From positions 1 through 64,000 of the forward strand of contig CBDAFS010000012.1 in assembly GCA_965195285.1 (NCBI GenBank): 64,000 nt of DNA. Reading direction: 5' to 3'. Made by a program: the position numbers and the translations under genes. This DNA is from an uncultured Aminicenantes bacterium. GTDB taxonomy: Bacteria; Acidobacteriota; Aminicenantia; UBA2199. Of the stretch, positions 12,149-64,000 are shown one piece after another; the stretch's first letter is position 1, and every line of letters begins with the position of its first letter. Below the pieces are notes generated by a model. It was not told the DNA's origin, did not search any database, and saw only the letters and a list, made by a program, of their open reading frames with translations.

Positions 12149-14602
12149 ATGAAAACAATTCGATTTGAAGTTTTTTTTATTATCCTGACGGTATTTTTTT
12201 TATTGGGTTCGGATACAATAGGTTCTGATTCTTTAAAAGAACACAACCTGATCATCATTTCCCTGGATACTACCCGGGCCGATTATATCGGCTTTTACAA
12301 CCGTGAAAAAAGCAGCCTGACCCCCCACATCAACCAGCTGGCCGGACAGGGGGTCAGTTTCCAAAACTGCTATGCCCCTACACCCCTGACCCTTCCCTCA
12401 CACTGTTCCCTGTTCACCGGCTTATATCCCCTGGCCCATGGCGTGAGAAACAATGCCTCCTATGCACTTGGAGATGCAGAGGTTACCCTGGCTGAAATTT
12501 TTAAAAAAAACGGGTATACCACTCATGCGGTGATTTCGGCTTATGTACTGGCCTCGAAATTCGGTTTGCATCAGGGATTTGATGTCTATGATGACTCTCT
12601 GGATTCCAGCCGGATGATCAATTCCTTTGCCTCGGAAATCCCGGCTAACCGGGTTTATTCCAAGTTCAGCCTGTGGTTTGAAAAGAATTTCAATAAAAAA
12701 TTTTTTTCCTGGATCCACTTCTATGATCCCCACCAGCCCTATATCCCCCCCGCTCCTTTTAAAGAAAAATACCAGGAAGACCTGTATGCCGGAGAGGTTG
12801 CCTATGTGGATCTCTACCTGGGCAAGATCATTTCCGATTTAAAGAGAAAGGGGATTTATGATAGAACCCTGGTGGTCGTTTTCGGGGATCACGGGGAAGA
12901 CCTCGGTGAACATGATGAATACGGCCACGGGACTTTCTGTTACAACCAATCCCTGAAAGTTCCTTTGATTTTTTCCAAAAATCTGGGTTACCGGTCGGGC
13001 ACTCTGGTCAGGCAGAATACACACCTGGTAGATGTCATGCCCTCCCTGCTCGATCTTTTCGGAATGAAGTCCGAAGTGAAATTTCAGGGCGAGTCATTGC
13101 TGGGCATCAACCCGGTTGATTCCGAAAATGACAGCCGGCTGCTCTATTTTGAAAGCATGTATCCCAATGAAGAGATGGGCTGGGCCCCGGTCACCGGTAT
13201 CATTGAAAAGCAATTTAAATATATCCATTTACCCAAAGCCGAACTGTATGACCTTGAAGCCGATGAGGCTGAGAAGGTCAATTTGTATTATAAAAAATTC
13301 AATATTTCCCAGCGATTGAAAAAGAAACTGGAACAGTTTGTTGTTACCCATTCGGAGAAAAAAAATGCCTACCGGAAAACAGTGAGTTCCGAAGACATGA
13401 AACACCTGGAATCGCTGGGGTATATTTCCTCTTTTAAGAAGTCGAAAGAACTGATTGATCCCAAGAGGGGAATAGCATTTAGAAGCCGGTTGAGAACGGT
13501 GAAGCAATTGATTGTTCAGGGACGCCTGGAAACGGCTGAAAACGATCTGGTCAATTTGATAGCCGTTGAACCGGATATCAAAAGCCCGGTCATTTATGAT
13601 TTTTTTGTTGAGATATATATGGGCCAGAAGAACCTGAAAAAACTAATTGATATCCAGAAAAAGGCCATCGATGAGTTTCCCCACAACAATCAGCTGAAGA
13701 TCAACCTGGCCAATACCTATTTTAATTCTTCCGATTTGCCCGCCTCCGAAAAACTCTGCCAAGACATTTTGAAGATTGATCCCGGTTATTCCCGGGCTTT
13801 CATATTATTAGGGAAAATCGCCCTGAATGACCAGCGGTTTGACCGGGCCAAGACCTATTTCAGGGAAGCCCAGAAACTTGAGCCCCGCAATCAGGCACTG
13901 AAAAAAATGATGGCGGAAGTATTGATCCGGTCCGGGGATCTGGTGGCGGCCAAAGAGGCCCTGAAAAAAATCGGCAACAATCCGGCACTGCTGGCCAGCC
14001 GGTTTGATCATGCCCTGCTGGTAAAGGTGGCCGGCCGACTGGCCTCACTCGGGGAACTGGATGCTGCCCAGGCGATTCTGTCCAGGATACTGGAAATCGA
14101 GTCTAAAAATATCCGGGCCCTGAATGGACTGGCCGGATTATACCTGAAAAGGCGGGACCCGGACCGGGCCTCTGAATTGTATGACCGGGCTTATGATCTG
14201 GATCCGGATTCTGCCGTGACCTTATGCAATCTGGGGGTTCTCAATTTGATTAAATTTCAACAATCAAAGGACCGGTCTTTGCTGCCGCAAGCCCTGACCT
14301 GGTTCAATCAATCCATTGATAAAAATTCCTATTATGCACCGGCTGTCAATGGCCGGGCCAGTGTAAAAATGTTTCTCAACCGGATTCCAGAAGCGATTGA
14401 AGATTGGAAGAAGACCATCGAGATCCAGCCGGATTTTATCGATGCTTATTTCAATCTAGGGATCATCCATCTCAGGCTTAAGAGGCCGGCTGAGGCCTTA
14501 ACCTACTTGAATATTTTGAAAGAGCGGTACCAAAACCGGCTGTCCCAAGCCCGACAGAATCAATTGCAGCGGTTGATTCGGGAATCCGAAGCCAACCGGT
14601 GA
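12149..14602 (+). CDS. Exported sulfatase-like (alkaline phosphatase superfamily) protein with C-terminal TPRs; Thr nucleophile
   Basis: LDTTRAD, PLTLPSHCSLFTG, HFYDPH, GDHGE, LESLGY; TPR repeats in the last ~350 aa. Confidence 0.88.
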   Translation: MKTIRFEVFFIILTVFFLLGSDTIGSDSLKEHNLIIISLDTTRADYIGFYNREKSSLTPHINQLAGQGVSFQNCYAPTPLTLPSHCSLFTGLYPLAHGVRNNASYALGDAEVTLAEIFKKNGYTTHAVISAYVLASKFGLHQGFDVYDDSLDSSRMINSFASEIPANRVYSKFSLWFEKNFNKKFFSWIHFYDPHQPYIPPAPFKEKYQEDLYAGEVAYVDLYLGKIISDLKRKGIYDRTLVVVFGDHGEDLGEHDEYGHGTFCYNQSLKVPLIFSKNLGYRSGTLVRQNTHLVDVMPSLLDLFGMKSEVKFQGESLLGINPVDSENDSRLLYFESMYPNEEMGWAPVTGIIEKQFKYIHLPKAELYDLEADEAEKVNLYYKKFNISQRLKKKLEQFVVTHSEKKNAYRKTVSSEDMKHLESLGYISSFKKSKELIDPKRGIAFRSRLRTVKQLIVQGRLETAENDLVNLIAVEPDIKSPVIYDFFVEIYMGQKNLKKLIDIQKKAIDEFPHNNQLKINLANTYFNSSDLPASEKLCQDILKIDPGYSRAFILLGKIALNDQRFDRAKTYFREAQKLEPRNQALKKMMAEVLIRSGDLVAAKEALKKIGNNPALLASRFDHALLVKVAGRLASLGELDAAQAILSRILEIESKNIRALNGLAGLYLKRRDPDRASELYDRAYDLDPDSAVTLCNLGVLNLIKFQQSKDRSLLPQALTWFNQSIDKNSYYAPAVNGRASVKMFLNRIPEAIEDWKKTIEIQPDFIDAYFNLGIIHLRLKRPAEALTYLNILKERYQNRLSQARQNQLQRLIRESEANR

Positions 14603-14638
14603 TCACCCTTACCTGATAAATTGGATGTGTATCTTCCC

Positions 14639-14662
14639 GGGCAAACCGCCGTTTGCCCCTGC
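14639..14662 (-). repeat. Short hairpin between convergent genes; resembles a degenerate GTAG-family REP
   Basis: Minus strand GCAGGGGCAAACGGCGGTTTGCCC; 8-bp stem GGGCAAAC/GTTTGCCC. Confidence 0.4.
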
Positions 14663-14687
14663 ATATTGAGATGATTTGATAAAATAG

Positions 14688-18924: not shown

Positions 18925-18953
18925 TTGACGGGTACGCGTAATTTTTGTATAGT
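18925..18953 (+). promoter_or_regulatory. sigma70 promoter, leaderless geometry
   Basis: TTGACG-17-TATAGT-6 nt-ATG(18960); no SD. Confidence 0.65.
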
Positions 18954-18959
18954 GGTAAG

Positions 18960-21089
18960 ATGAAAATAAAAATATTAATCGCAGTCTTGCTGCTGCTGGT
19001 TGTGGGCACGATCCTGTTTTTAGTATTGGGAGATCATCAAAAAGCCTGGGATGGAAATGTATTGATCATCACCCTGGATACCACCCGGGCCGATGTCCTG
19101 GGTTGCTACGGAAATCAGCAGGTGAAAACCCCCCATCTGGACCGGCTGGGCCAACAGGGAATTCGTTTTGAGAATTGTTATTCGCCGGTTCCCCTGACCC
19201 TTCCTTCCCACTGTACCCTTTTTACCGGAAAGTACCCCATCGGACACGGGGTCCGGAATAACGGAACTTTTTATTTAAATGACAATCATCATACCCTCAC
19301 GGAAATATTCCAAAAACAGGGGTATCATACCTATGCGGTGATTGCGGCATTTGTGCTGTTATCCAAATTCGGGCTTAAACAGGGATTTGATGTGTATGAT
19401 GATTCGCTGGATAGCTATAAAATCGTTAACACTTTCCAATCGGAAATCAGGGCCAATGTGATCTATGAAAAATTCAGCATATGGTTTGCCGAAAACTGGC
19501 AGCAAAAATTTTTCGCCTGGATTCATTTTTATGATCCCCATTCCCCTTACCAGCCTCCCCAGGGGTTTTTCAAAAAGGAAGACATCCGGAACAAGGAGGC
19601 CCTTTACCGGGGAGAGGTTTCCTTCATGGATGTGTATATCGGCAAAATCATGGAGGACCTGAAGAAGAAGGGCATTATGGACAAAACCCTGGTGGTGGTG
19701 GTGGGAGATCACGGCGAGGCTTTCGGTGAACACAAGGAATATGCGGGTCACAGTGTGTTCTGTTATCAGGAGAATATACGGGTGCCCTTTTTCATGTTCA
19801 ATCCGGGGCTATTTAATAATCCGGAAGTGGTGCGGGACCGGGTCAGCACCGCCGATATCATGCCCACCCTGATGGAATTGAGCGGGCTTGAGACTGATGA
19901 AGGAATTCAGGGGAAAAGCCTGGTCTCCTTATTGAAGAAGGGTCATGATCCGGCCCCTGCGCTGATCTACCTAGAAAGCATGTACGGCAAGGAAGAATTG
20001 GGCTGGGCCCCGTTGACCGGTATCATTGAAGGGGATTACAAATATATTTCTCTGCCTGAACCGGAACTATACAATCTAGTGGATGATCCCGGAGAGAAGA
20101 CCAATCTGGCCCGGATCAAATCCAATATTTCCCGGAAAATGGACAAAAAATTAGAAGAACTGGTGATCCGGTATTCCAGCGCAGCCGGGGATTCCAAGCG
20201 GGATCTGTCCGGTACGGATATTCAACATCTGAAATCTCTGGGATATATTTCTTCCTTTTCCGGAAAAACCCAGGGACTGGTGGATCCCAAAAAAGGGATT
20301 ATCTTCAACAACCGGATCAAACGAATCTCCAGAATCATCAAAGTCGGAAAACTGGATGAAGCCGAGGCGGAAATTAACCGGATCATGAAGGAGAATCCGG
20401 AAATGATCAACTATGCCCTGATCAGCCAGTTGTTTAAGGTACATTCGAGCCGGAATCATACTGATAAGGCCCTGGATGCATTGAGAGAGGGGATCCGGCG
20501 ATTTCCCGAGATGATTGCTTTCCGGACCATGATGGGACAGATGTTGTACGATGACAAAAGATATGATGAAGTCCTTACCCAGTGCCAGAACATTCTGGAG
20601 ATCGATTCCCAATGTACCTGGGCCTATATTCTGCAAGGGGACAGCTATGACCGGCTGAACAAACCCCGGGAGGCCCTGGAGAATTACCGCAGGGCCCTGG
20701 AGCTGGAACCGAAAAATATTTCCATGACCATCAAATACGGGGAGTTATTGATCAAAAACAAGCAACTCCAGCAGGCATTAATTGTATTTAACCGGATACT
20801 GGATAATCCGGATGTATGGAACAGTCCGGACATTCTCTATAAAATTTCCCTGTTCAATACCAGCTACGGATCCATGCAGAAAGCCGAGGAATTGATGAGA
20901 AGGGCCGTTTCCCTCCGCCCGGAAGGAAAATATTATTATTCCTATGCCCTGGTGCTTTCCAAAAACAAGAAGATTGGCGAGGCGGTTCGTTATATGGAGA
21001 TTGCCCTCAAGAGATATTCCGGCCAGTTGTCCGAAAAACAGAAGAACACGGCTTCCCGGGCGGTCAGGGTCTGGAAACAGGCGCTCTGA
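18960..21089 (+). CDS. Membrane-anchored sulfatase-like protein with TPRs (paralog of 12149)
   Basis: N-terminal TM/signal; LDTTRAD, PLTLPSHCTLFTG, HFYDPH, GDHGE, LKSLGY; TPRs. Confidence 0.88.
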   Translation: MKIKILIAVLLLLVVGTILFLVLGDHQKAWDGNVLIITLDTTRADVLGCYGNQQVKTPHLDRLGQQGIRFENCYSPVPLTLPSHCTLFTGKYPIGHGVRNNGTFYLNDNHHTLTEIFQKQGYHTYAVIAAFVLLSKFGLKQGFDVYDDSLDSYKIVNTFQSEIRANVIYEKFSIWFAENWQQKFFAWIHFYDPHSPYQPPQGFFKKEDIRNKEALYRGEVSFMDVYIGKIMEDLKKKGIMDKTLVVVVGDHGEAFGEHKEYAGHSVFCYQENIRVPFFMFNPGLFNNPEVVRDRVSTADIMPTLMELSGLETDEGIQGKSLVSLLKKGHDPAPALIYLESMYGKEELGWAPLTGIIEGDYKYISLPEPELYNLVDDPGEKTNLARIKSNISRKMDKKLEELVIRYSSAAGDSKRDLSGTDIQHLKSLGYISSFSGKTQGLVDPKKGIIFNNRIKRISRIIKVGKLDEAEAEINRIMKENPEMINYALISQLFKVHSSRNHTDKALDALREGIRRFPEMIAFRTMMGQMLYDDKRYDEVLTQCQNILEIDSQCTWAYILQGDSYDRLNKPREALENYRRALELEPKNISMTIKYGELLIKNKQLQQALIVFNRILDNPDVWNSPDILYKISLFNTSYGSMQKAEELMRRAVSLRPEGKYYYSYALVLSKNKKIGEAVRYMEIALKRYSGQLSEKQKNTASRAVRVWKQAL

Positions 21090-25408: not shown

Positions 25409-25453
25409 TTCTGTTCGATTTTAATCTGGCCTGTTTTGACCACGATCGATTTT

Positions 25454-26440
25454 TTAGTCCAACATTCCATGGTTTAAATACCATTCGGCGGTTTTCTGGA
25501 GGCCCTCTTCCAAAGAGACCTCGGGCTGGTAGCCTAATTCCTGTCGGGCCTTGCCAATATCAAAAGCCCTGTCCTTGGTGAAAAAATCCAGCCTCCGGCG
25601 GTATAGCGGGGGTTCGATCCCCAGGGGTCGGCACAGGGCTTCGCATGCCAGCGCAGCCAGCTGGACGGGCCACAGGGGGATATGTTTCCCGGGATTCGGC
25701 TTATTGAGGATTCTGGCGATCATTTCCACCAGTTTATTTAGTTCGATATATTCATTGCCCCCCAGGGTGTAAACCTGGCCGGGCGCCTGTTTTTTTTCAC
25801 CGGCCAGTATGATGCCCCGGATGAGATCTTCGACAAAAGTCAGGTGGTATAATACCTTTCCCTTTCCGATCATTCTGAATTTGCCCTGGTAGATGTGTTT
25901 GAATAATTTAAGAAATCGGGTGTCTCCCGGGCCGTAAATCCCCACCGGTCTGACTACCACCACATCCAGTTTGTTGGCCTGAGCATAGGCCAGGGCCAGT
26001 TTTTCCCCTTCCATTTTTGATTCCTGGTAATGATCACCCGGGTTGAAGGGAGCGGTCTCCCGTGCCGGAGGGTCGGTAATTTCTCCCTGAACTCCCACGG
26101 TACTGCAGTGGACAAATCGCTTGACCCCGGCGGTTACGGACTCTTCCAGCAATGCCCGGGTTCCTTCCACATTCACCCGGGAAAACATCTCCCTGGCCAC
26201 TCCTTCCTGCCGGAACAGGGCAGCGATATGAAAGACCAGATCAATACCGTTTAATTTTCCCATCAAAGAGAGCGGGGCCGACAGATCCCCTTCAGTGAGT
26301 TCCAGGTTGAGCTTTTCCAACTGGTTGGTATTGCTGGTCTTTCTGACCATGGCCTGAACCGAATAACCTCTTTCAATCAGGGCTTTACATAGATAGTAGC
26401 CGGTAAATCCGCTGGCACCGGTTACCCATACACGTTTCAT
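25454..26440 (-). CDS. Extended SDR, NAD-dependent epimerase/dehydratase
   Basis: VTGASGFTG, HCST, YQESK, RPVGIYGPG; GAGG RBS before MKRVW. Confidence 0.9.
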   Translation of the reverse strand: MKRVWVTGASGFTGYYLCKALIERGYSVQAMVRKTSNTNQLEKLNLELTEGDLSAPLSLMGKLNGIDLVFHIAALFRQEGVAREMFSRVNVEGTRALLEESVTAGVKRFVHCSTVGVQGEITDPPARETAPFNPGDHYQESKMEGEKLALAYAQANKLDVVVVRPVGIYGPGDTRFLKLFKHIYQGKFRMIGKGKVLYHLTFVEDLIRGIILAGEKKQAPGQVYTLGGNEYIELNKLVEMIARILNKPNPGKHIPLWPVQLAALACEALCRPLGIEPPLYRRRLDFFTKDRAFDIGKARQELGYQPEVSLEEGLQKTAEWYLNHGMLD

Positions 26441-26459
26441 GATTACCTCACTGGTTTTA

Positions 26460-27251: not shown

Positions 27252-27348
27252 TGGCGATTTATTGTTATCCCGGTTAAAAATCAAGTTAGCATGATATTAT
27301 ACCCCGGCAGAAAAGTCAAGCGGATTAAGTCCGAAAGGCCCGGCCGGT

Positions 27349-28902: not shown

Positions 28903-28908
28903 GCTGAG

Positions 28909-28937
28909 ATCATATCAGAGAAAGTCGATGGTGTCAA
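28909..28937 (-). promoter_or_regulatory. sigma70 promoter, leaderless; -35 overlaps the upstream stop codon
   Basis: TTGACA-17-(TGn)TATGAT-6 nt-ATG(28902). Confidence 0.7.
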
Positions 28938-30469: not shown

Positions 30470-30475
30470 TTATTA

Positions 30476-31222: not shown

Positions 31223-31228
31223 CGGCAT

Positions 31229-31257
31229 ATTTTAAATCAATTTGAGGTTAAATTCAA
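31229..31257 (-). promoter_or_regulatory. sigma70 promoter, leaderless geometry
   Basis: TTGAAT-17-TAAAAT-6 nt-ATG(31222, MSKKED). Confidence 0.55.
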
Positions 31258-31469
31258 TAATCATTGATAATTATTCCGGTTGATACGGGTTCAAAATTCT
31301 GGTGGCCAGGTCATTTGTACAAGCCAGTGAACCGGGTCAGTCCTGGAGTTTGATTGATTTTTTTGTTTTATGTGGTATAATCTTTTTTTCATTTAATCTG
31401 AGTATTTCATAGCTCCCGGGTATCGGATAATAAAAAAATGAGGATGTTGACCTTTATAATTTGGCAATA

Positions 31470-32828: not shown

Positions 32829-32863
32829 TAAAACGGAGCTGAAAGGTCTCGGCAGGATACAAG

Positions 32864-53659: not shown

Positions 53660-54940
53660 ATGAAACGCACCATAGTAGTTGCCACCGTTCTATTTATTGC
53701 CCTGTTGATCCTGGTGTATTTTATATTCTTTCATACCGGAAATCAAAACTGGATACTGGATGATATCCAATTCAAGGCCCGGGACGGATTTGTCCTGGAT
53801 GCCTACCTGCTCCGGCCCGAAGTACCCCGGAAAAAATACCCGGCTGTGGCCTGCTTCCATCAGTTATGGGGAAACCGGGATGATTTTTTGAAACTCTTTC
53901 CCAAGCTGGCAGAAGCCGGTATCGTGGTCCTGGCTCCGAATTTTCCCAGGCAGCAGCCCACCTATGACCCCAGAAGGATCTCCGATTTGAGAAATACCCT
54001 TGATTTTCTGGAAAACATTGACTATGTGGATGGGCAAAAACTGGGGATGGTCACGGCCAGTTTTTCGGTTGAGACCGGTATGACTGCCATCAACCAGAAA
54101 CCCAATGTGATTGCCAGCGTGATGATTTCCGGACAGATTCTGCGTGAAAATTCCCGAAAGAGGCTGACCCATAATTCAAATCTGGCCATTTTTAATATTG
54201 CCAGTGTTCATGATGGCTCGCATTATCTGATCATGAAGGAATGCCTGGCCAGAAGCCTGAATCCGTTTTCCCGTTCATTCTTCATCGAAAAAAAGGAGGA
54301 TCCTTTTTCAATTCAGGCTCATGGCACCTTTGTCTTTGATGAAATTCCGGACAGTCTGGACCGGATTCAACAATTTTTCATGGATGTTTTCGGAATTTCC
54401 ATCAAAAATGAAAAATTAATCGATAAGGAGGTTTTGAAAAACACCGTTTATTTATCCTCAACCGACGGATTACCGGTAGTGGCAACCCTGAAGCTTCCCG
54501 AAAGTCCTCACCATCCTATGCCCGTAGTCATTCTGTATCCTCCCCAGTTTGAGAGTCGGATGTACTATGATAAACTGGCCGATCGGCTGGCAGAAAACGG
54601 GATTGCGGTTCTGGCTCCCAATACCAAACGAACTTGCCGTGAGCCGGTCAAGCTTCATCTCTGTGATAAGGAAATTCACGGCGCCCTTCAATATATTTTG
54701 AAAGACGGGCGGTTTGATCCCAGCCGCATTGCCCTGGTTTTTCCCTCATTCTACTTCCTGATTGCCCGGCAAATGATCGAAAACCGGGAAATTCCGGTGA
54801 AGATGGTGGTGATGATGGAGGCCGGCACCAAAAATTACGAAATTAATCCACGCAAAATAGACCATGCCGGTTATTGCTTTTATTACCTGAAAAAGCCCAG
54901 TCTGGGCCGGTTGAAATACATATTATTAAATTCATTATGA
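53660..54940 (+). CDS. Membrane-anchored protein with tandem alpha/beta-hydrolase-like repeats
   Basis: N-terminal TM; repeat 1 ARDG..LDAYL.RP..PAV..FH..LAEAGIVVLAPN; repeat 2 STDG..VATL..P..PVV..LAENGIAVLAPN. Confidence 0.72.
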   Translation: MKRTIVVATVLFIALLILVYFIFFHTGNQNWILDDIQFKARDGFVLDAYLLRPEVPRKKYPAVACFHQLWGNRDDFLKLFPKLAEAGIVVLAPNFPRQQPTYDPRRISDLRNTLDFLENIDYVDGQKLGMVTASFSVETGMTAINQKPNVIASVMISGQILRENSRKRLTHNSNLAIFNIASVHDGSHYLIMKECLARSLNPFSRSFFIEKKEDPFSIQAHGTFVFDEIPDSLDRIQQFFMDVFGISIKNEKLIDKEVLKNTVYLSSTDGLPVVATLKLPESPHHPMPVVILYPPQFESRMYYDKLADRLAENGIAVLAPNTKRTCREPVKLHLCDKEIHGALQYILKDGRFDPSRIALVFPSFYFLIARQMIENREIPVKMVVMMEAGTKNYEINPRKIDHAGYCFYYLKKPSLGRLKYILLNSL

Positions 54941-55722
54941 TGAAAATATTCGGATTGCATCGGGCCTGTATTTTGGGTTTTGTCCTGTTTTTGTTCATTC
55001 TATTTTCAGTTGCGGCGGTTCCCCGATTACCCGGGGGTGATGCTGAACCGGATCCCCGAATCGGAGCTCAGGTGTTTATACGTTCCGGGAATTATTATGT
55101 GGGAAACCCGACCGAAACAAACACTCAGTCCCACCGACTGATGGCATTCAGAGATTTTTATATAGATATCCACCCGGTGACCAATTTTCAATATGTGGAG
55201 TTTATTAACCGGAGCCGTTATCATCCACGGGGAAAGTTCAGCATTGAAGAGGCCCGAAAGAATCCCTGGCTGCCGGCCACCGGCCTGATCCATGCTGATG
55301 CCGAGGCCTTTGCCGATTTCCATCAGAAACGCCTGCCCACGGAATGGGAGTGGGAAATTGCGGCGCGTTCTCTGGAAAAGGATGTGTTGTATGCCATCGG
55401 ATCTCTGCCCACTCTGGAAACCGGTAATTTTTACCGTTATAAACAGAAGAACGGGGTCACTCCGGGTTTTTCCTACCCGCCCAATAAACTGGGAATATAC
55501 GGGATGGCCGGAAATGTGTTTGAATGGACATCCAGTTTATATCCGATCGAGAAACTCAAGGGGGCCTATTTTCAGAAATACCGCCTCATGGTTTTAAGAG
55601 GAGGTGCCTGGACCAATATTCCCCATGATGTGCGAGTGACAACCCGGACACCGTTTCCGGCCAGCAGAAGTCTGGAATGGCTGGGATTCAGGTGTGTTTC
55701 TGAGAAACCGGTCCAGCATTGA
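54937..55722 (+). CDS. FGE/SUMF1-fold protein lacking the catalytic cysteines
   Basis: FYID.HPVTN.QY, KRLPTEWEWE.AAR, GMAGNVFEW, RGGAW, GFRC; no CxxxxC after RGG; ATGA overlap with the upstream stop. Confidence 0.85.
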   Translation: MMKIFGLHRACILGFVLFLFILFSVAAVPRLPGGDAEPDPRIGAQVFIRSGNYYVGNPTETNTQSHRLMAFRDFYIDIHPVTNFQYVEFINRSRYHPRGKFSIEEARKNPWLPATGLIHADAEAFADFHQKRLPTEWEWEIAARSLEKDVLYAIGSLPTLETGNFYRYKQKNGVTPGFSYPPNKLGIYGMAGNVFEWTSSLYPIEKLKGAYFQKYRLMVLRGGAWTNIPHDVRVTTRTPFPASRSLEWLGFRCVSEKPVQH

Positions 55723-58211
55723 CAACAATGAAAAAGAACCTGGTTCAAATCATTTTGATAACTCTCATTATTTTGTTTTCATTTGGATTGCGAATTTATT
55801 CGCCCACAGCAGACTTGCCCCCTGATATTTCATTCAGCGGTAGTATCTATACCGATGAAGGCAACCAATGTCACAATTCCAGAAGCAAGGTCCTCTTTGA
55901 TGATTGGTCTCCGGATGACTGGCGTATCAGCAATTACAGCCCGGTTGTTCCGTTCATGAAGTACCTGATTTTTAAAATATTCGGGGTGGGATTGGTTCAG
56001 GAGAGGCTGGTATCCTATATTTTTGCCTTCTTCTCTTTGCTGTTGTTTTACCTGATTCTGAAATCTTATTTCAGTTTTTCCTTTACCCTTCTGGGAACAG
56101 TAGTCATGGGGCTCAATTTCTTTATGGTGATGTATAACCGAATCGGCACTTTTGAAACCCCCATGATGTTCTGGATGATTCTCAGCCTTTATTTTGTCGA
56201 AAAATTCCGGTCCAGTGAAAATCCGCTCTACCTTTCACTTTCTGCTGCCTCTGCTTTTCTGAGCTTTGTGTTTAAAAATATCGCCGCGTATTTTGTTCCG
56301 GTTCCCCTGGCAGCGGTGATCATCTGGTTTTTACTATTTAAAACACCGGGAAAGGAATCCTGGAAGAAAGGTGTCAGGCTTTTTGGTTTTGCCTTTCTGG
56401 GAGCGGCTATTGCCATAGGACTATGGGTTGTCCTTTTTTATATTCCCAACCGGGAATGGATTCTGAGTGTGCCGGGCCAGTATATTTCCAACCAGGTGTT
56501 GCCCAAAACCCTGGATCAGGCCATTCATAATTTTTACGGGTTCAACTGGAAGGAACAGTTTTACAAAATTCCGGTGGTATGGCTGTTGTCACTTTTATCC
56601 GTTCCCTATTTAATCAGAAAAGTGGTGCAGAGAAAAATTGATATAACCGGGATCGGGTTCGGAATGTTGTTTTTCTTACATACCCTGTTTTTCATGTTCA
56701 TGAATCACCGGCCTACCCGGTATTTGATCCCGGTGATCCCGGCCATGATCTTCATGTCTGTTTTGTTTTTGAAGGCCATAACCCGTTTGCCCGGTAGCAG
56801 GCGGTTTGAATATTCATTTTTTCAGAAAGCGGTTATTTTCATATCCGATACCCTCTGGCTGGGACTGGCTGCCAATTTCTGTTTTTTCCCCCTCTGGGAC
56901 CGTTACCTGAAATCCATTCAAATTCCGCCTCTCTCCATCCGTTATGTTGTTTTTTCGGCCTTATTGATCGGATTGCTGATTTTTTTGAAAAAACTCTATA
57001 TTCGATTTATGGCCGGGCGGATCCGTTTGAATTTTAAACCGGTTTCATGGCTGCTGATCATTTTGCTGACAGGCATATCCCTGGCCAGCAATCTGTCCAA
57101 TTACCTGAAATGGAATAGGGACAAGACCCATACGGTCTATCAAATATCTCATGAACTGGGAGAAAAGCTGGATAATGCATATATCGCCGGGTTGACCGCA
57201 CCGGTGGCGGTGCTTGAAAACACCCATCGGTCTCTGTTTTTGTATCCCGATTTTGTAAACTGGGATCAGAAGACATTTGAGCGGTATCCCCTGACTCATG
57301 CCTTACTGGCCAGTTTCAATCAGGAAATAAGCCATTTTTTCAGGCAATGGCCGGAAAGAATGAATCAGGCCCGGCTCCTGAAGGTCTACAATGTGAAAGA
57401 CCAATTCTTGCACTTGTATTCTTTTGTAGATCCATTCATTGTTCAGGCCAGGGAAATCCGGGGTCGGGGAATAGAACTGAGAATTCTGAATCCTTCCGAT
57501 GGCCCGGTGAAAGTCGGCATCGGAAAGATTTTCTTTTTCAATAATGCGGGTGAACGGATCGGGCCTGAGAGTCATTTTATTGAAGAGGCAAATGAGATGG
57601 TTGTATTAAATTCCGGTGAAAATGAGCTGGTTCTGGAAGATGCATTTTCAGATCAGCCAAATCCGGTATCCGTTCTTTTATTTCTGGACCTGAAGGGGTG
57701 GAAGATAAACCACCGCTACGAGGCAGAAAAGTTTCCCGGTAAAGTCGGGGAAAACATCAGAAATGTCCGGGCCTCCGGAGGTTTTACCCGGGGTTTCTTT
57801 CAGAAAAAACACCGGGCCGGCTTTCTGAGTTTCGGCCCCTTCATACCCTATTCGAAAGGCTTTTTAAAGGTTGATTTTTATTTGCAGTGTCGCCGGGTGA
57901 GGTCAAGAATCCGGCCGCTGGCCGAACTGGATATCTTTTCCTACAGTGATAAGCAGTCCCTGGATAAACGGGTATTGAAGCCCAGGGATATCCGGGATGA
58001 TGGTTTTAACCATTACCCGTTAACCGTCGCCCTTTCCGATCGGCATTTTCTGGAATTCCGGGTTTATGCCGAAAGGTTTGCAGATATTGATTTAGACTAT
58101 GTTAACGTGGTATATTATCAGGGGTATTTACTGAATATTAACCATAACAAGGGAAGTTCATTGTTGGCCAAGAGCACCCTTCAAGGAGGAATCTTCGGTG
58201 AAACAAGGTGA
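55719..58211 (+). CDS. GT-C glycosyltransferase (ArnT/PMT-like) with C-terminal carbohydrate-binding-like domain
   Basis: LR...YTDEG, R.V, FET, K, RYLIP; ~13 TMs; C-terminal YEAE...FGPFIP...LEFRV...DY beta sandwich. Confidence 0.8.
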   Translation: MTTMKKNLVQIILITLIILFSFGLRIYSPTADLPPDISFSGSIYTDEGNQCHNSRSKVLFDDWSPDDWRISNYSPVVPFMKYLIFKIFGVGLVQERLVSYIFAFFSLLLFYLILKSYFSFSFTLLGTVVMGLNFFMVMYNRIGTFETPMMFWMILSLYFVEKFRSSENPLYLSLSAASAFLSFVFKNIAAYFVPVPLAAVIIWFLLFKTPGKESWKKGVRLFGFAFLGAAIAIGLWVVLFYIPNREWILSVPGQYISNQVLPKTLDQAIHNFYGFNWKEQFYKIPVVWLLSLLSVPYLIRKVVQRKIDITGIGFGMLFFLHTLFFMFMNHRPTRYLIPVIPAMIFMSVLFLKAITRLPGSRRFEYSFFQKAVIFISDTLWLGLAANFCFFPLWDRYLKSIQIPPLSIRYVVFSALLIGLLIFLKKLYIRFMAGRIRLNFKPVSWLLIILLTGISLASNLSNYLKWNRDKTHTVYQISHELGEKLDNAYIAGLTAPVAVLENTHRSLFLYPDFVNWDQKTFERYPLTHALLASFNQEISHFFRQWPERMNQARLLKVYNVKDQFLHLYSFVDPFIVQAREIRGRGIELRILNPSDGPVKVGIGKIFFFNNAGERIGPESHFIEEANEMVVLNSGENELVLEDAFSDQPNPVSVLLFLDLKGWKINHRYEAEKFPGKVGENIRNVRASGGFTRGFFQKKHRAGFLSFGPFIPYSKGFLKVDFYLQCRRVRSRIRPLAELDIFSYSDKQSLDKRVLKPRDIRDDGFNHYPLTVALSDRHFLEFRVYAERFADIDLDYVNVVYYQGYLLNINHNKGSSLLAKSTLQGGIFGETR

Positions 58212-58935
58212 TCAAAAAAAGGTTTTAACCGATGTGCTGTTACCGGTATATAATGAGGAACATATACTGGAAAAAAGTGTGAACCGGTTGCGGGAATTTC
58301 TGTCCGCTGAATGCAAGCATTTAAACTGGATCATTTCAATAGGGGACAATGCCTCCACTGATAAAACTCTGGAGATTGCCAGAAAATTGGAAAAACAATT
58401 TTCTGATGTCCGGGTATTTCACCTCCCCCGGAAGGGTCGGGGCCGGATGGTTAAACATGCCTGGACCAGAAGCGAGGCGGATGTTTTGTCCTATATGGAT
58501 ATTGACCTGTCAACCGATCTGAAGGCATTTCCTCCCATGATCCAGGCCATTATAGATGGCTATGACATAGCCATCGGCTCACGGCAGTATAAGGGGGCGG
58601 ATGTGGATCGAAGCCTGCGTCGGGAAATCATATCCCGGGGGTATATCTGGGTATTGAAGCTTTTACTGCGTTTTCCCTTTACCGATGCCCAGTGCGGCTT
58701 TAAAGCCATCTCCAAACAGACTGTGTCAGAGTTGTTCTCCCATATTAAAGATGATGAGTGGTTTTTTGATACGGAACTGTTGCATATTGCCCACCAGGAA
58801 GGATACAAGGTAAAAGAAATTCCGGTTCGCTGGATCGAGGACCGGGATTCACGGGTTAAAATAATGAGGACTGCCTGGCTGGATATTCTGGGGGTTCTGC
58901 GTATGATAGGATATCGAAGGGGATCTTTGAAATGA
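58198..58935 (+). CDS. GT2 polyprenol-phosphate sugar synthase (Dol-P-Glc/Man synthase-like)
   Basis: LPVYNEE, DNASTDKT, GRG, YMDIDLST, GSR, DAQCGFKA, WFFDTELL; GTG start with GGAGG. Confidence 0.9.
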   Translation: MKQGDQKKVLTDVLLPVYNEEHILEKSVNRLREFLSAECKHLNWIISIGDNASTDKTLEIARKLEKQFSDVRVFHLPRKGRGRMVKHAWTRSEADVLSYMDIDLSTDLKAFPPMIQAIIDGYDIAIGSRQYKGADVDRSLRREIISRGYIWVLKLLLRFPFTDAQCGFKAISKQTVSELFSHIKDDEWFFDTELLHIAHQEGYKVKEIPVRWIEDRDSRVKIMRTAWLDILGVLRMIGYRRGSLK

Positions 58936-60302
58936 AAAAATCCATATTGATAACCGGCATCACCGGATTCGTGGGCCGCCATCTGCTCGAAAAAATGGAT
59001 TTGTCATCTTATCAGACGGTTTTTGGTTTGAGCCGGGAACCGGAAAAAATTTGTTTCCCGGATAAAGTTCCCAAAAATCTGAAAATGATCCGGGGGGATC
59101 TATTGCATCCCGAGTGCTACCGGTCGATCTTAAACCAGGTGGATACGGTGGTGCATCTGGCAGCGATAACTGGCAAGGCAGGCCGGGCTGAGTATCGAAG
59201 GGTAAATGTCCGGGCCACCCGGGAATTACTGGAAGCCTGCCAGGATTCGGGAGTGAAACATTTCTTATTGGTGAGCTCCATTGCCGTAAAATTCAAACGC
59301 CAACAGCGCTATTTTTATGCCCGTTCCAAACAGCAGGCTGAAGGTGAGGTCAAAAAGAGCGGGCTCAATTATACGATTCTGAGACCTACCATTATCCTGG
59401 GGGCCGGCTCCCCGGTTTTCAGCGGCTTTGCCCGGTTTGCCGGTTTACCGCTGGTTCCGGTATTCGGTAAAGGGGCTGTACAGATTCAACCGGTACATGT
59501 GGCTGATGTGGCCGAGGTGATCCGGGATATACTGAATAAGTCGCTCTTCAAGGGGGACACTATTGAACTGGGGGGGAACCAGACAGTTACTATCAAGGAT
59601 TTCATGAAATTGCTGTCCTCCCGCTGCCAGACCGGCCCGGCCCGCTTCCTGCATGTTCCTCTGGGCCCTATGGTTTTTTTCCTGTTTCTGGCAGAACCCC
59701 TGCTGTACCCGATCCTGCCCTTTACTATGGGGCAGCTGGCCACTTTTCGCAATGATGGGATTGCTGATCCCCATGACGCGGTTGGCAGATTGTCTTCCGG
59801 GTTCCTGGGAATCGAGCGGATGATCGATGACAGTTTTCAGGCTCAGAAGGTTGAACTCCGGAAAAAGGATCTGGAAAAAGAATGCCGGGTTTTCTGTCAA
59901 TACCTGCTCGGGCAAAAGCCCGGTCCCTATGTGATGAAAAAATATTTGGATGTCCATCAAAAAATCGACATGAAGGCCAAAAACAAATTCGATCGGATAT
60001 TGGCCCGCCTGGGGGCCAGGAACCGGATTCTGGTCCGGGCCTGTGATTCGTATTCCCGTTTTTTCTATCCTTGCTCCCTGCTTCGAAAGAAGTTGGTTTA
60101 TCTGTTGGCGATTCTGGAAACCGCCTCTCCCCACGCCCAGATTATCGATCGATCGGATAACCAGGGAAAATTCATGTTGTTGTTTATCATGGGATTGAAG
60201 GGAATGGGGCTTGTCTTTTTTCTGATTGTATCGTTTCCGATTTTATTTCCCCTTCAGGTTGTCCTAAAATCCAAACAGACGGGGGAATTGAACCATGGTT
60301 AA
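58932..60302 (+). CDS. SDR epimerase/reductase fused to a ~150-aa C-terminal membrane-associated domain
   Basis: ITGITGFVG, VSS, YARSK, LRP, QPVHV.DVA; extra domain ECRVFCQYL...LLRKKL..LLAILE plus a terminal TM. Confidence 0.82.
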   Translation: MKKSILITGITGFVGRHLLEKMDLSSYQTVFGLSREPEKICFPDKVPKNLKMIRGDLLHPECYRSILNQVDTVVHLAAITGKAGRAEYRRVNVRATRELLEACQDSGVKHFLLVSSIAVKFKRQQRYFYARSKQQAEGEVKKSGLNYTILRPTIILGAGSPVFSGFARFAGLPLVPVFGKGAVQIQPVHVADVAEVIRDILNKSLFKGDTIELGGNQTVTIKDFMKLLSSRCQTGPARFLHVPLGPMVFFLFLAEPLLYPILPFTMGQLATFRNDGIADPHDAVGRLSSGFLGIERMIDDSFQAQKVELRKKDLEKECRVFCQYLLGQKPGPYVMKKYLDVHQKIDMKAKNKFDRILARLGARNRILVRACDSYSRFFYPCSLLRKKLVYLLAILETASPHAQIIDRSDNQGKFMLLFIMGLKGMGLVFFLIVSFPILFPLQVVLKSKQTGELNHG

Positions 60303-61911
60303 AATAACGGTTGTGGGTTCCGGGGCCAGTGGTGTCCATTTTGCGCTTTCCGCCCTTAAAAAGGGACATCAGGTTGAAATGCTGGATGTGGGGTATTCAG
60401 CTCCCCCCAATGTGAACCCGGAGTTTTCTTTCATTGATATCAAATCCAAACTGGAGGACCCGGTTGCCTATTTTTTAGGTGAAAACTATGAGACCGTAGT
60501 TTCCCCCGATTTTGACAATGAGATCTACGAATTCCCTCCCAATAAGATGTATATATTTAAAGTCCCCCCGGGTTTCAAATCCGACAGCAGGGATTTTGAT
60601 CCGCTGTTTTCTTTTGCCCGGGGCGGGCTGGCCGAGGCCTGGACCGGGGGAAGCTATCCATTTAATGATCAAGATCTGGCCCTCTTTCCCTTTGACTATG
60701 AAACCCTGAAGCCCTATTACGAGGAGATTGCCGAGCGGATTGGTCTGATTGGAGACAGGGATGATATTTCCCGTTTTTTTCCTTGGCATGAGAACCTTCT
60801 CCCTCCCCTGGAACTGGATGAGAATTCAAAAATAATTCTGGAAAAATACCAAAAACGGAGAGAACTACTCAACCGGAAAATGGGTTTTTATTTGGGCAGG
60901 TCCAGGATTGCCACCCTGAGCGTTGATAAGGGGGATCGCAAGGCCTGTGACTATTCGGGAAGGTGTCTCTGGGGATGTCCCAGTGATTCCCTGTATGTTC
61001 CCTCATTGACCCTGGCCGATTGCCAGAAATACGAACATTTCAGCTATAAACCCGGTGTGCTGGTCGAACATTTTAAGGTCAATTCCCGGAAGCGGATCAC
61101 ACACCTGGTTTTCCAGGATCTGGCCCTTCAGAAAAGAGGGGAAATAAAAGTGGATAACCTGGTGTTGGCCGCCGGCACCCTCTCATCATCAAAAATTTTC
61201 CTGGATTCCGTTTACCGGCAAACCGGAAAAATACTGAAACTGGAAGGTCTGATGGACAACCGTCAAATCCTGGTTCCTTTTTTGAACCTCAGTTTAATGG
61301 GAAAATCATATAACCCGGAGTCCTATGTGTATCACCAACTGGCCGTGGGTTTCGAGTGTGAAAAGACTTCCAATTACATTCACGGTCAGATCACCACCCT
61401 GAAAACGGCCTTGATTCACCCGGTGACCCTGCAGATGCCGCTGGACTTTAAAACGGCAACCTACCTGACCCGGAATCTGCATTCGGCACTGGGGGTCATC
61501 AACCTGAATTTCTGCGATACCCGGCGAGCGGATAACCAGCTCACCATTGAGCCGGATTCAACCGGCAAGCAAGACCAGACTACCCTGAAAATTACCTATC
61601 AATCGATTCCCGACGAAAAAACCATCATTTCTTCAGCCACCAAGCGAGTGATGAAATTCCTGAGAAAACTGGGGTCGATTGCACCACCCATGATGATCCA
61701 ATCCCGGCCCATGGGGGCCAGTGTTCACTATTCGGGGACCCTGCCTATGAGCACTACCGATGAACCACTGGGTGTCACACCGGATTGCCGGAGCCGGGAT
61801 TTTGATAACCTGTTCTTTGTTGACGGAACCGTTTTTCCGTTTTTACCGGCAAAGAACCTGACCTTTACCATGATGGCCAATGCGGCCCGAGTTGCAGATA
61901 AAGTCTTTTAA
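60295..61911 (+). CDS. GMC-family FAD oxidoreductase
   Basis: VVGSGASG, GGLAEAW, CDYSGRCLWGCP, LAAGTL, HYSGT, NLFFVDG, NLTFTMMANA.RVA. Confidence 0.88.
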   Translation: MVKITVVGSGASGVHFALSALKKGHQVEMLDVGYSAPPNVNPEFSFIDIKSKLEDPVAYFLGENYETVVSPDFDNEIYEFPPNKMYIFKVPPGFKSDSRDFDPLFSFARGGLAEAWTGGSYPFNDQDLALFPFDYETLKPYYEEIAERIGLIGDRDDISRFFPWHENLLPPLELDENSKIILEKYQKRRELLNRKMGFYLGRSRIATLSVDKGDRKACDYSGRCLWGCPSDSLYVPSLTLADCQKYEHFSYKPGVLVEHFKVNSRKRITHLVFQDLALQKRGEIKVDNLVLAAGTLSSSKIFLDSVYRQTGKILKLEGLMDNRQILVPFLNLSLMGKSYNPESYVYHQLAVGFECEKTSNYIHGQITTLKTALIHPVTLQMPLDFKTATYLTRNLHSALGVINLNFCDTRRADNQLTIEPDSTGKQDQTTLKITYQSIPDEKTIISSATKRVMKFLRKLGSIAPPMMIQSRPMGASVHYSGTLPMSTTDEPLGVTPDCRSRDFDNLFFVDGTVFPFLPAKNLTFTMMANAARVADKVF

Positions 61912-61925
61912 TGAACGAGGAGAAT

Positions 61926-63518
61926 ATGAAGAAAATACTTTTTGGTTTACTGGCTCTCTTTCTGGTACTGAACCTGTTTCCGGAAATTGACAAAAAAAAC
62001 AATCAGAAAAAAACGTTAACATTTGAAAAAGCAGTGGCCTGCCGGGCAGTTCTTGAAATCAGGTCACTGGTCAGCGGATCTGTTTCCGAGGTGCTGGCCG
62101 CCAAGGGGGACCGAGTCACAACCGGCCAAATATTACTCCAGTTTGATGTCTCGGGGCTGGATGAGGAAATCCGGACAGCAGAGCAGAGTCTGGAAATATG
62201 GGAAAAAACACTCTTCAATCGTGAACATTGGAAGGTTCGCAGCCAGCCAGCCGAAAACCAGGCCAAAAGAAAAATAGAGGAGTTTAAAACCGATATTAAA
62301 AAGAAAAAACAGCAGAAATCCCGGCAGCGGATCCATTCGCTGATTGAGGGAAGCGTATTGGATATTGTTGATGAAAAAATGCCGGTGGAAGAGGACCAGG
62401 TAGTGGCCCGGATCGGGGATGATTCGGTGCTCAAAATTGAATTAACCCCGAATGACTCCAACCGGAATGTTCTGGCAGAAATTCAGGATGGAGAAAAAAT
62501 ATCTCTGACCTTTAAGAAAGTCAACCTGGCCTGTTCCGGGGAGATCAAAAAAGTGAATGATCGAATGGTCATTCTTATTCCCAATGACAAATACCTGCTG
62601 AAACCGGGAATGATGGCCAAATTCCAGTTCACTTATGATATCCAACCGGAGATCCAAAAGGTACTGAAACAACCCCAGGTCCGGCCGAAAGATCTTCAGT
62701 ATATAAAAGAGAAAAAGATCGGATTTGAAATTTCAGCCGGGATGTCATGGTCGGATCCCGGCGAATATTACGACCGGGCTTCAGGGATTGACAACCTGAT
62801 GGATCAGTACATCCAAAACTACGGCCTGGAATATACGATCAGCGGTAAATTCGGAAAGAATATTATTTATTTTCCGGTCAATGTCCTGGTCAATTACCGG
62901 ATTTCGGAAAAATGGTATCTGAAAGCCGGCCTTGAGTTCGGTTATGGCAATCAATCCAGCCAGAAAACCTACCATTTAAACTGGACCACCACAACCGAGG
63001 ATCACCGTTACAATCTCTCTTCAAAATTAACCTATTTCATGCCCTTTGTGGGAGCGGAAAGACGGTTCGGAAAATTTGGTGTTTATGCAAATGTGGGATT
63101 GAATTTGCTCAGCTTATCCCACCAGAAAAATCTGGAAATATCAGAATCCACTTACTGGTACAGGCAGGATGAAGACATCTCGGCCACTGGCACCGGTATC
63201 GGAATACTGGTGGGAGGAAAATACAATTTTCTCATTGGTAAAAAAACGAACCTGATTCTAAAGCTGGAATTATGTTATTTGAAAGTGAGCAACCTGTCCG
63301 GGAGCCGGGACGCCTCTATTACAAACTCGCTCGGAGAATCCCTGTCTGAATCCATTCAGGGGACCATTTACAGTTTTGAGATAAATCCCTATGACCTGGG
63401 CTGGTTTTATACCTGGGAAATGTTTGGTTCGGTTCCCGGTGAGTCCTGGATTCGAAATGTGAGCGAGATGGCCATCAATATGTCCAGTATTCGGCTGATG
63501 CTGGGAATTAAATTTTAG
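61926..63518 (+). CDS. Periplasmic adaptor (HlyD/MFP-like) domain fused to a C-terminal outer-membrane beta-barrel
   Basis: GAGGAG RBS, signal peptide; lipoyl half (SLVSGSV..V....GDRV..GQILL), helical hairpin, lipoyl half (SLIEGSV), LKPGM; then amphipathic strands ending LMLGIKF. Confidence 0.7.
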   Translation: MKKILFGLLALFLVLNLFPEIDKKNNQKKTLTFEKAVACRAVLEIRSLVSGSVSEVLAAKGDRVTTGQILLQFDVSGLDEEIRTAEQSLEIWEKTLFNREHWKVRSQPAENQAKRKIEEFKTDIKKKKQQKSRQRIHSLIEGSVLDIVDEKMPVEEDQVVARIGDDSVLKIELTPNDSNRNVLAEIQDGEKISLTFKKVNLACSGEIKKVNDRMVILIPNDKYLLKPGMMAKFQFTYDIQPEIQKVLKQPQVRPKDLQYIKEKKIGFEISAGMSWSDPGEYYDRASGIDNLMDQYIQNYGLEYTISGKFGKNIIYFPVNVLVNYRISEKWYLKAGLEFGYGNQSSQKTYHLNWTTTTEDHRYNLSSKLTYFMPFVGAERRFGKFGVYANVGLNLLSLSHQKNLEISESTYWYRQDEDISATGTGIGILVGGKYNFLIGKKTNLILKLELCYLKVSNLSGSRDASITNSLGESLSESIQGTIYSFEINPYDLGWFYTWEMFGSVPGESWIRNVSEMAINMSSIRLMLGIKF

Positions 63519-63537
63519 AGGCGAGTATATTCTGTAC

Positions 63538-63563
63538 TGAAATGGAAGTATGAAATGGAAGTA
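63538..63563 (+). repeat. 13-bp tandem duplication over the start of the last gene
   Basis: TGAAATGGAAGTA twice. Confidence 0.8.
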
Positions 63564-64000
63564 AAGAACAACGTCAGGCTGTTGATCCTATTGCTGGTTC
63601 TGGGAGTGTCGATGTGCCTGTTGATCGCCCCGGGATGCCGGCCGGACCGCTCCGTCCTGCCCAATGTGGTGGTCATTGTCATTGATACCCTGAGGGCAGA
63701 TCATCTTCCCTTCTATGGTTATCCCAAAAACACGGCCCCTTTTTTGGCTAAACTGGCCTCTCAGGGTGTTCTCTTTGAAAAAGCCTATGCGACTTCTTCC
63801 CTGACCGCCCCTTCCACCGCTTCGTTGTTTACTTCTTTTTATCCGTTTCAACACGGTGTGGTCCTGAATATTGGCGGAACCATCAAACTTCGGAAAATGG
63901 CACCCAAACTGAAGGTGAAATTAAACAAAATACCTCCGGAGATCACCACTCTGGGAGAAATATTCAAACAGGCCGGGTACAGCACATACGGGGTTTCGGA
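63555..64000 (+). CDS. Sulfatase-like lipoprotein, 5' part (runs off the window; not in the ORF track); paralog of 42785
   Basis: MEVKNNVRLLILLLVLGVSMCLLIAPGC lipobox; VIDTLRADHLPFYGY; SSLTAPSTASLFTSFYPFQHGV; open to the end. Confidence 0.88.
   Translation, partial: MEVKNNVRLLILLLVLGVSMCLLIAPGCRPDRSVLPNVVVIVIDTLRADHLPFYGYPKNTAPFLAKLASQGVLFEKAYATSSLTAPSTASLFTSFYPFQHGVVLNIGGTIKLRKMAPKLKVKLNKIPPEITTLGEIFKQAGYSTYGVS

Follow-up and report, generated by a model that had tools for sequence, protein, structure and literature searches.

Exported alkaline-phosphatase-superfamily proteins with Thr or Ser at the nucleophile position, six of them in a glycan gene island, in an uncultured Aminicenantes bacterium

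Thr-type enzymes of the LtaS/EptA kind are textbook knowledge. That many members of the Pfam family PF00884 (Sulfatase) carry a Thr and cannot be counted as sulfatases is also already known: according to the 2016 SulfAtlas article, Thr cannot yield formylglycine (FGly), Thr is present in 30 of the 59 PF00884 seed sequences, and the Thr-type members are not sulfatases (PMC5066984). In the archaeon Halobacterium salinarum the sulfatase-fold proteins Agl30 (VNG1056C) and Agl31 (VNG1057C), encoded in a glycosylation cluster, are reported to be needed for N-glycan sulfation (PMC11980604). Here we describe eight open reading frames (ORFs), S1 to S8, from an uncultured Aminicenantes bacterium (contig CBDAFS010000012.1, positions 1 to 64,000; this whole stretch of 64,000 nucleotides is referred to as the window). 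The eight ORFs are carried on 52 kb of the window, and the genome measures 3.28 Mb and is 95% complete. An earlier note, made from the letters alone, had read them as exported "sulfatases" lacking an FGly motif that add or edit substituents on a surface glycan. We computed residues, fold, export signals, conserved operons and fusions, and find that all eight are alkaline-phosphatase-superfamily proteins, that six of them belong to a large, biochemically uncharacterised Thr-type clade, and that S3 to S8 lie in an island of glycan genes. The ORFs are as follows.

12149..14602, plus strand: S1, exported Thr-type sulfatase-fold enzyme, TLPSH, with C-terminal TPR repeats (PF00884 9e-43 plus TPR families)
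18945..21089, plus strand: S2, exported Thr-type sulfatase-fold enzyme, TLPSH, with TPR; S1 paralogue (41% identity); the ATG at 18960 is residue 6 of this ORF
37075..38412, plus strand: S3, exported PF01663-like enzyme of Tat/lipobox type, Ser at the nucleophile position, KSNVVW
42785..44107, plus strand: S4, lipoprotein-type Thr enzyme, TSPAT; the protein whose structure was modelled
44178..45512, plus strand: S5, lipoprotein-type PF01663-like Ser enzyme, S3 paralogue (50% identity), KSNVVW
45611..47419, plus strand: S6, Thr enzyme, TLPSF, with an additional N-terminal domain of ~130 aa; orthologues in loci L001 and L089
52132..53511, minus strand: S7, Thr enzyme, TSPAF
63555..>64000, plus strand: S8, Thr enzyme, TAPST, interrupted by the window end; the full ORF ends at contig position 64886 (443 aa)

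The eight proteins had been presented as one family, which they are not. PF00884 is the best Pfam family for S1, S2, S4, S6, S7 and S8 (E 1e-23 to 4e-48), all of which read T-x-P-[SA]-x where sulfatases have C/S-x-P-x-R; for S3 and S5 the best family is PF01663 Phosphodiest (5e-20 and 7e-20; 72.8 and 72.3 bits, the cut-off being 23), their match to PF00884 being partial and C-terminal, and both are of Ser type. The genome holds 18 PF00884 matches, 16 full-length and two partial (S3 and S5), and the full-length ones comprise 14 exported Thr-type proteins, one FGly-type sulfatase (CTAGR) and one LtaS/EptA-like protein with transmembrane (TM) segments. Eight of the 18 fall within these 52 kb, which are 1.6% of the 3.28 Mb, a clustering that exceeds chance.

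Re-reading gave the same motifs as before (TLPSH twice, TSPAT, TLPSF, TSPAF, TAPST and K-S-N-V-V-W), with the first metal Asp invariant in all eight ORFs and [SG]DHG in the seven complete ones, as well as in full-length S8. The statement that none has C/S-x-P-x-R stands for the catalytic position; elsewhere the bare C/S-x-P/A-x-R pattern does occur in four ORFs, as SRPDR at residue 23 of S6, as CRPDR at residue 28 of S8 (where the Cys is the lipobox Cys), and in the TPR tails as SEANR (S1) and SRAVR (S2). In S6 and S8 an R-P-D-R-S stretch (window 45677-45691 and 63636-63650) comes right behind the signal anchor or lipobox and before the catalytic domain, and its agreement with C/S-x-P-x-R is probably a coincidence. 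Every one of the eight ORFs carries an export signal, as had been claimed earlier: a hydrophobic segment at the N-terminus was seen in six, S3 has the leader MKRRDFV...AAAHC (Tat-like plus lipobox) and S5 the lipobox-type leader ...GLFTC. The start of S3 (window 37075-37150) reads MKRRDFVQKSLL...AAAHC, a twin-arginine-like leader combined with a lipobox Cys, which suggests export in a folded, metal-loaded state.

Aligned by phmmer with solved sulfatases, S4 has its Thr at the FGly position of 4upi and at the Cys-to-Ser position of 5g2v, and the Arg of CxPxR is replaced by Thr. Together with the Ser of S3 and S5, which takes the place of Thr64 in PhnA (see below), this bears out the earlier claims that Thr or Ser occupies the nucleophile site and that these proteins are not FGly sulfatases. 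The second sulfatase signature, G-Y-x-[TSCV]-x3-G-K-...-[WMYNLF]-[HLGN], a SulfAtlas pattern whose Lys and His bind sulfate (PMC5066984), is absent from all 16 Thr/Ser paralogues (the eight ORFs plus eight other Thr-type proteins); the same regular expression does recover it, alongside CTAGR(79), in the positive control, the one true sulfatase of the genome (C39:131585-133120). His269 of S4 aligns with the catalytic Lys of EfAS and of phosphonate monoester hydrolases (PMHs), for which residue roles were taken from PMC12421950. The kept residues, in S4 numbering, are D43, T83, H201, D256, H257, E259, H264 and H269, and by analogy they would form one metal site (Asp43, Thr83, Asp256, His257) accompanied by His201, Glu259, His264 and His269, an arrangement that resembles the Thr-nucleophile phosphoryl transferases.

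These residues are also retained well beyond this genome. T-x-P-x-x is present in 118 of 120 S4 homologues, and among 100 family ORFs from 80 loci or genomes of many phyla 93 have Thr, two have CxPxR, one has Ala and four are gapped at that position, with H201 kept in 97, D256 in 97, H257 in 96, E259 in 95 and H269 in 95. Such conservation, which covers the metal ligands and four His/Glu residues in 93-97 of the 100 ORFs across phyla and is typical of active enzymes, makes it highly improbable that the proteins are pseudoenzymes, that is, dead binding modules recognising phosphorylated or sulfated glycans, even though the canonical sulfatase nucleophile and several substrate-binding residues have been lost and the fusions to TPR point towards binding.

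An AlphaFold2 model of S4, built from 58 sequences, has a mean pLDDT of 90.3 and a pTM of 0.89. In searches with Foldseek and VIA-align the S1 sulfatases and PMHs rank first (Z 34-41 for S1 sulfatases), the best comparisons being 6hr5 (Z 41.2, root-mean-square deviation (rmsd) 2.2, 344 aligned residues) and 4uph (Z 35.6); the model shows the two-domain sulfatase fold with the metal-binding Asp residues D43 and D256 conserved. The structure prediction proposed earlier as a check thus confirms a sulfatase/PMH scaffold and leaves the chemistry undecided, because the periplasmic domain of PbgA/YejM scores only slightly lower (Z 33.7, rmsd 3.0, 324 aligned, against 41-34).

The very strong S1 fold match, with Z up to 41.2, would also agree with sulfate chemistry, the proteins then being either direct-Thr sulfatases or glycan sulfotransferases after the manner of Agl30/Agl31, and the genome does encode an adenosine 5'-phosphosulfate (APS) kinase. 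We nonetheless regard this as improbable: the S1 sulfate-binding residues are gone (the CxPxR Arg, the Lys/His of signature II and the catalytic Lys), the proteins are exported and so remote from 3'-phosphoadenosine 5'-phosphosulfate, and the gene for the APS kinase is located on a different contig (C31), no sulfate-activation gene being present in the island. The sulfation role of Agl30/Agl31 is a precedent, and any kinship of these two with the Thr clade is tentative, their residue at the nucleophile position not being given in the description (PMC11980604). The manganese-dependent arylsulfatase NF052527 was considered as a precedent for a sulfatase independent of FGly and rejected, since it uses Cys61-FGly (PMC12421950).

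The Ser-type pair S3 and S5 appear to be NPP/PhnA-like relatives with a Ser nucleophile. Five sequences (S3, S5 and three paralogues) were combined in a profile and aligned with phosphonoacetate hydrolase (PhnA); their Ser coincides with the nucleophile Thr64, a T in structure 3szy that the mutant 3t02 changes to A. Across the five paralogues neither this Ser nor the D...H and D-H ligands vary. A single-sequence search of the PDB with S3 gave no match at E <= 0.01.

The Thr-type paralogues of the genome score 120-457 bits against each other, compared with 36.6 bits for the true sulfatase and 27.3 bits for the LtaS-like TM protein. Members of the clade are named sulfatase, arylsulfatase A-like or choline-sulfatase in databases, where the close homologues stand under Candidatus Aminicenantes or Acidobacteriota. 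In our search of the literature (main texts, without supplements) no characterisation of a soluble sulfatase-fold Thr clade was found. A short tag, [LMIV][KREQ][SAT][LMIV]GY[ILVM], closes the catalytic module; a scan of the 3459 genome ORFs of at least 120 aa finds it 16 times, and 14 of the 16 carriers are these alkaline-phosphatase-superfamily proteins, the PF01663-like S3 and S5 included. It is present in 115 of 120 S4 homologues and reads LESLGYI at residue 420 of S1. Because the TPR fusions carry the tag in their interior, it cannot serve as a C-terminal carboxylate signal. The sites are as follows.

13406-13426: tag, in the window
20229-20249: tag, in the window
38377-38397: tag, in the window
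44081-44101: tag, in the window
45486-45506: tag, in the window
47396-47416: tag, in the window
52141-52161, minus strand: tag, in the window
contig C12:64860-64880: tag, beyond the window end

Taking active site and surroundings together, we propose that these enzymes attack phosphodiesters by way of their Thr (Ser in S3 and S5) and pass through a covalent intermediate, and that S3 to S8 add or trim phospho-linked groups on the glycan of the neighbouring pathway, a proposal that we hold to be evenly balanced between right and wrong. The metal-activated Thr would attack a phosphodiester, a covalent phospho-Thr intermediate would form, and the head group would then go either to the hydroxyl of an acceptor, which is transfer, or to water, which is trimming. 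Judged by their leaders, all of the proteins are exported in lipoprotein or membrane-anchored form. Working in the periplasm, S3 to S8 would have as their target a surface glycan or the polyprenyl-phosphate-linked precursors of it, the glycan being made by the co-operonic GT2, GtrA, SDR plus GMC and GT-C machinery, and the adjoining polytopic GT-C-type proteins would be the counterpart of the membrane domain that is fused in LtaS and EptA. The phosphoryl chemistry, the covalent intermediate, the glycan as substrate and the direction of the reaction are what we infer here.

The island with S3 to S8 spans from ~23 kb to contig position 67 kb. Apart from the ORFs already given, its genes are the following.

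23072..34780: upstream tailoring block with M1 (polytopic), SDR epimerase, methyltransferase, GDSL/SGNH hydrolase, FAD oxidoreductase, hexapeptide acyltransferase, amine-oxidase/UGM-like protein and AsnB-type amidotransferase (from Pfam and TM counts)
34859..35209, plus strand: GtrA-family small membrane protein (PF04138 E 1.2e-20), the only PF04138 match of the genome
35240..36973, minus strand: M2, polytopic membrane protein (~10 TM) without a Pfam family
38354..39226, plus strand: Est, esterase-like (weak PF10503 match); accompanies S4-type genes in relatives
39223..41649, minus strand: GTC1, PMT_2 GT-C glycosyltransferase (PF13231 6e-15)
41681..42739, minus strand: U, single-TM protein with no family assigned, upstream of GTC1 on the same strand and kept in locus L091
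47498..49546, plus strand: Big_7/DUF4982 Ig-like exported protein (Pfam, synteny)
49638..52106, plus strand: M3, polytopic, the terminal gene of the S4-S5-S6 run; hhalign 96% to the PMT_2/YfhO alignment over 91 columns
53660..54940, plus strand: DLH-like alpha/beta hydrolase (Pfam, synteny)
54874..55722, plus strand: protein with the domain of the formylglycine-generating enzyme (FGE) and without the catalytic Cys pair, pFGE/SUMF2-like (PF03781 3.5e-38)
55719..58211, plus strand: GTC2, PMT_2 GT-C glycosyltransferase whose orthologues adjoin S4-type genes
58198..58935, plus strand: GT2 resembling polyprenyl-phosphate sugar synthases (PF00535 6e-23)
58932..60302, plus strand: SDR oxidoreductase with C-terminal TM segments (Pfam, TM prediction)
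60295..61911, plus strand: GMC-type oxidoreductase (Pfam)
61911..63518, plus strand: exported protein with a beta-barrel-like C-terminus; a paralogue comes after S8

The GT-C, GtrA and GT2 genes among which the earlier note had placed S3 to S8 were all found, with two PMT_2 proteins, the GtrA at 34859-35209, and the GT2 at 58198-58935 matching the NCBIfam models for Dol-P-hexose transferase, PpgS and ArnC, all under the cut-off. No Pfam match was obtained for M1, M2 or M3 even at E <= 1; M3 is probably GT-C-like (YfhO/DUF6311-like), judging from its profile alignment. No transporters, kinases or glycoside hydrolases are present among the genes of the S3-S8 region.

The arrangement recurs in at least six related genomes. 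In these the order Est - S4-type - (S6) - DLH - FGE-like - GTC2 - YfhO-like - GT2 - SDR - GMC - outer-membrane-protein (OMP)-like is found, whole or in part, in loci L001, L002, L089 (G011), L090 (G010), L091 and L095 (G002) and L096 (G001). Proximity to PMT_2 genes was collated by hand, with a distance of <=10 kb, for 150 listed and counted family matches in 21 related genomes, 71 further matches standing outside the counts. Among the matches listed, 18 of 150 lie <=10 kb from a PMT_2 gene, where ~7 are expected at random placement; they occur in 10 of the 20 genomes with matches, and six of the 15 S4-type orthologues are among those so placed. In the 80 wider loci, 58 of 963 ORFs were chosen as multi-TM neighbours (6 or more predicted TM segments and a length of 350 aa or more), and these include 11 PMT_2 and three YfhO proteins; PMT_2 density is 8.8 per Mb there, whereas the 21 related genomes, with 126 matches in ~64 Mb, have ~2.0 per Mb. 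Co-occurrence with GT-C genes, which had been put forward as a check, thus concerns a minority of the clade (18 of 150 among the matches listed); the link with GT-C and glycan genes holds for a subfamily, and most clade members do not have it.

The earlier note had also remarked that the proteins lack the 5-TM domain of LtaS and EptA, which is borne out by the finding of zero to one N-terminal hydrophobic segment in each of the eight (S7 shows two overlapping windows that make one segment), and that a donor would have to come by another route. This latter point is partly answered by fusions elsewhere in the clade, where homologues bear YbhN/LPG_synthase_TM, PMT_2 or HTTM domains, all other than the 5-TM domain. 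Among 74 longer homologues the fused domains are TPR in 24, PF03706 (LPG_synthase_TM/YbhN) in 16, MopE in nine, PMT_2 (PF13231) in one and HTTM (PF05090) in one; these 74 and two fused ORFs from the loci have Thr without the Arg in 76 of 76 cases. The ORF L071:8375-11356 joins a GT-C-like N-terminus to a Thr domain, the former matching the genome's C39 PMT_2 protein (phmmer 1.7e-12) and no Pfam family. The membrane partner of the clade thus appears to be of another kind than the 5-TM domain of LtaS/EptA and often a separate gene. None of the genome's YbhN genes (six matches) adjoins the genes of the window. A paralogue of M1 (window 23072-25408; 778 aa) at G000:C62:191126-193513 lies 4.7 kb from an S1-type TPR paralogue (C62:184303-186474), and the M1 type may be a second sort of membrane partner.

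A bolder form of the proposal, which we consider doubtful, is that LtaS/EptA has here a split counterpart acting in trans: a GT-C, YfhO or YbhN protein would present a polyprenyl-phosphate-linked donor at the outer side of the membrane, the soluble Thr enzyme would attack the phosphodiester of this donor and move a phospho-head group, which may be a sugar-1-phosphate, to a glycan or protein of the envelope, and the L-x-S-L-G-Y-[ILV] tag would serve for docking.

Several observations weigh against phospho-group chemistry on a pathway glycan. None of the eight has a polytopic domain, and a lipid donor would need to be handed over in trans. NCBIfam scores are far below the cut-offs for EptA (51 bits, cut-off 561), LtaS (43, cut-off 970) and MCR-1 (29, cut-off 1100), and our literature search returned no activity, metal or intermediate for any clade member. 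Detectable by phmmer, GT-C proteins are present in eight of the 80 loci, PMT_2 making up 11 of the 58 multi-TM neighbours, and 132 of the 150 matches listed are not <=10 kb from PMT_2; the related genomes being kin, the synteny and proximity counts are non-independent and indicative only. A glycan context for all eight does not hold, as the neighbours of S1 and S2 are a prolyl oligopeptidase (S9 peptidase), a nitroreductase, a TonB-receptor-like OMP and a C69 peptidase, with no glycan genes, surroundings compatible with nutrient scavenging. The overall fold, finally, is nearest to the hydrolytic S1 sulfatases and PMHs.

Many of these points are what one would expect of secreted or periplasmic scavenging hydrolases (phosphodiesterases, phosphomonoesterases or phosphonate esterases) that liberate phosphate or carbon from polymers in the environment (teichoic-type polymers, phospholipid head groups or phosphoglycans, for example), with GT-C proximity incidental or reflecting turnover of the cell's own polymer. 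We think this unlikely, yet it is the most serious of the alternatives. The hydrolase scaffold, the distance of most matches from PMT_2 and the setting of S1 and S2 all suit it, as do the soluble or lipoprotein forms without a lipid-handling domain and the strong expansion of the clade, with 5-31 copies in 20 of the 21 related genomes and common occurrence in Planctomycetota, Hydrogenedentota and Acidobacteriota. It does not fit the genes around S3 to S8, which are biosynthetic and include no transporter, kinase or glycoside hydrolase, nor the collinear GT-C/GT2/SDR/GMC operons kept across genera, and fusions to YbhN/LPG_synthase_TM, PMT_2 and HTTM domains poorly fit a free hydrolase.

Some features of the island deserve separate mention. 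The FGE-domain gene at 54874-55722, overlooked by the earlier note although it lies inside the operon, matches PF03781 with 132 bits and has as its best PDB match 1y4j, SUMF2, a non-catalytic paralogue. In the region after RGGAW the Cys of GFRC is the sole Cys, and the protein lacks the pair at what we take to be the Cys pair position of true FGE; a role for FGE was accordingly rejected. The genome has eight FGE-domain matches and one CxAxR sulfatase, so FGE-domain genes are uninformative here. Four or more related loci (L001, L089, L091 and L096) keep the gene in its place immediately upstream of the GT-C gene. At window 58198-61911 the order is GT2, membrane-anchored SDR and GMC flavoenzyme, next to a GT-C gene. 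DprE1 and DprE2 epimerise decaprenyl-phospho-ribose by oxidation and then reduction, ahead of GT-C arabinosyltransferases, and the GT2-SDR-GMC arrangement is reminiscent of this; by analogy the set may epimerise a lipid-linked sugar, although DprE1 and the island's SDR and GMC enzymes are non-homologous. Past the island end follow an IS200-like Y1 transposase gene (L083 3784-4716; contig C12:67784-68716) and then PFOR and MscS genes. Outside the island on the other side, window 6087-8456, upstream of S1 and its neighbours, encodes a Hanks-type Ser/Thr protein kinase with fused TPR repeats.

The clade cannot make FGly and yet is named sulfatase, which means that metagenomic "sulfatase" counts in Acidobacteriota, Planctomycetota, Hydrogenedentota and others are inflated. 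Should phospho-group transfer onto GT-C-built glycans be true, it would constitute a new enzyme class in envelope biogenesis in phyla without cultured models, and the split design, if true, would add an undescribed extracytoplasmic route of phospho-decoration across many uncultured phyla. The conserved Aminicenantia operon offers a compact gene set for reconstitution: Thr enzyme, GT-C, GT2, SDR and GMC.

Compared with known systems, S3 and S5 are like the PhnA/NPP phosphodiesterases (PF01663) in matching PF01663 above the cut-off, with their Ser in register with PhnA Thr64, and differ from them in having Ser for Thr, P changed to N in the motif, and the C-terminal L-x-S-L-G-Y-I tag of the Thr clade. 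The six PF00884 ORFs share with the S1 sulfatases and PMHs (6hr5, 4upl, 4uph, 2vqr, EfAS 9koq) the two-domain fold, the first metal Asp, the P-H-x-P-Y His and the D-H pair, whereas they have Thr for Cys/Ser-FGly, lack the CxPxR Arg and signature II, and carry a His in place of the catalytic Lys, FGly maturation being impossible. With EptA/LptA/EptC/MCR-1, LtaS, OpgB and PbgA/YejM they would have in common a Thr nucleophile and a D/E-T-D-H metal site with additional His residues, and they share the extracytoplasmic location; S4 aligns with the MCR-1 domain weakly but significantly (phmmer, E 6e-9). For MCR-1 the published description gives a Zn1 set of E246/T285/D465/H466, with H395/H478 as at Zn2 (PMC5175174), onto which the D/T/D-H of S4 and its H201/H269 would map one to one. 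In contrast to LtaS, EptA and MCR-1, the window proteins have no fused 5-TM domain and possess an added sulfatase-type C-terminal subdomain (SGSH_C). Agl30/Agl31, compared by description only, are archaeal, one of them is cytosolic and their group is sulfate; they are alike (PMC11980604) in being alkaline-phosphatase-superfamily proteins of a glycosylation cluster that add rather than remove a charged glycan group.

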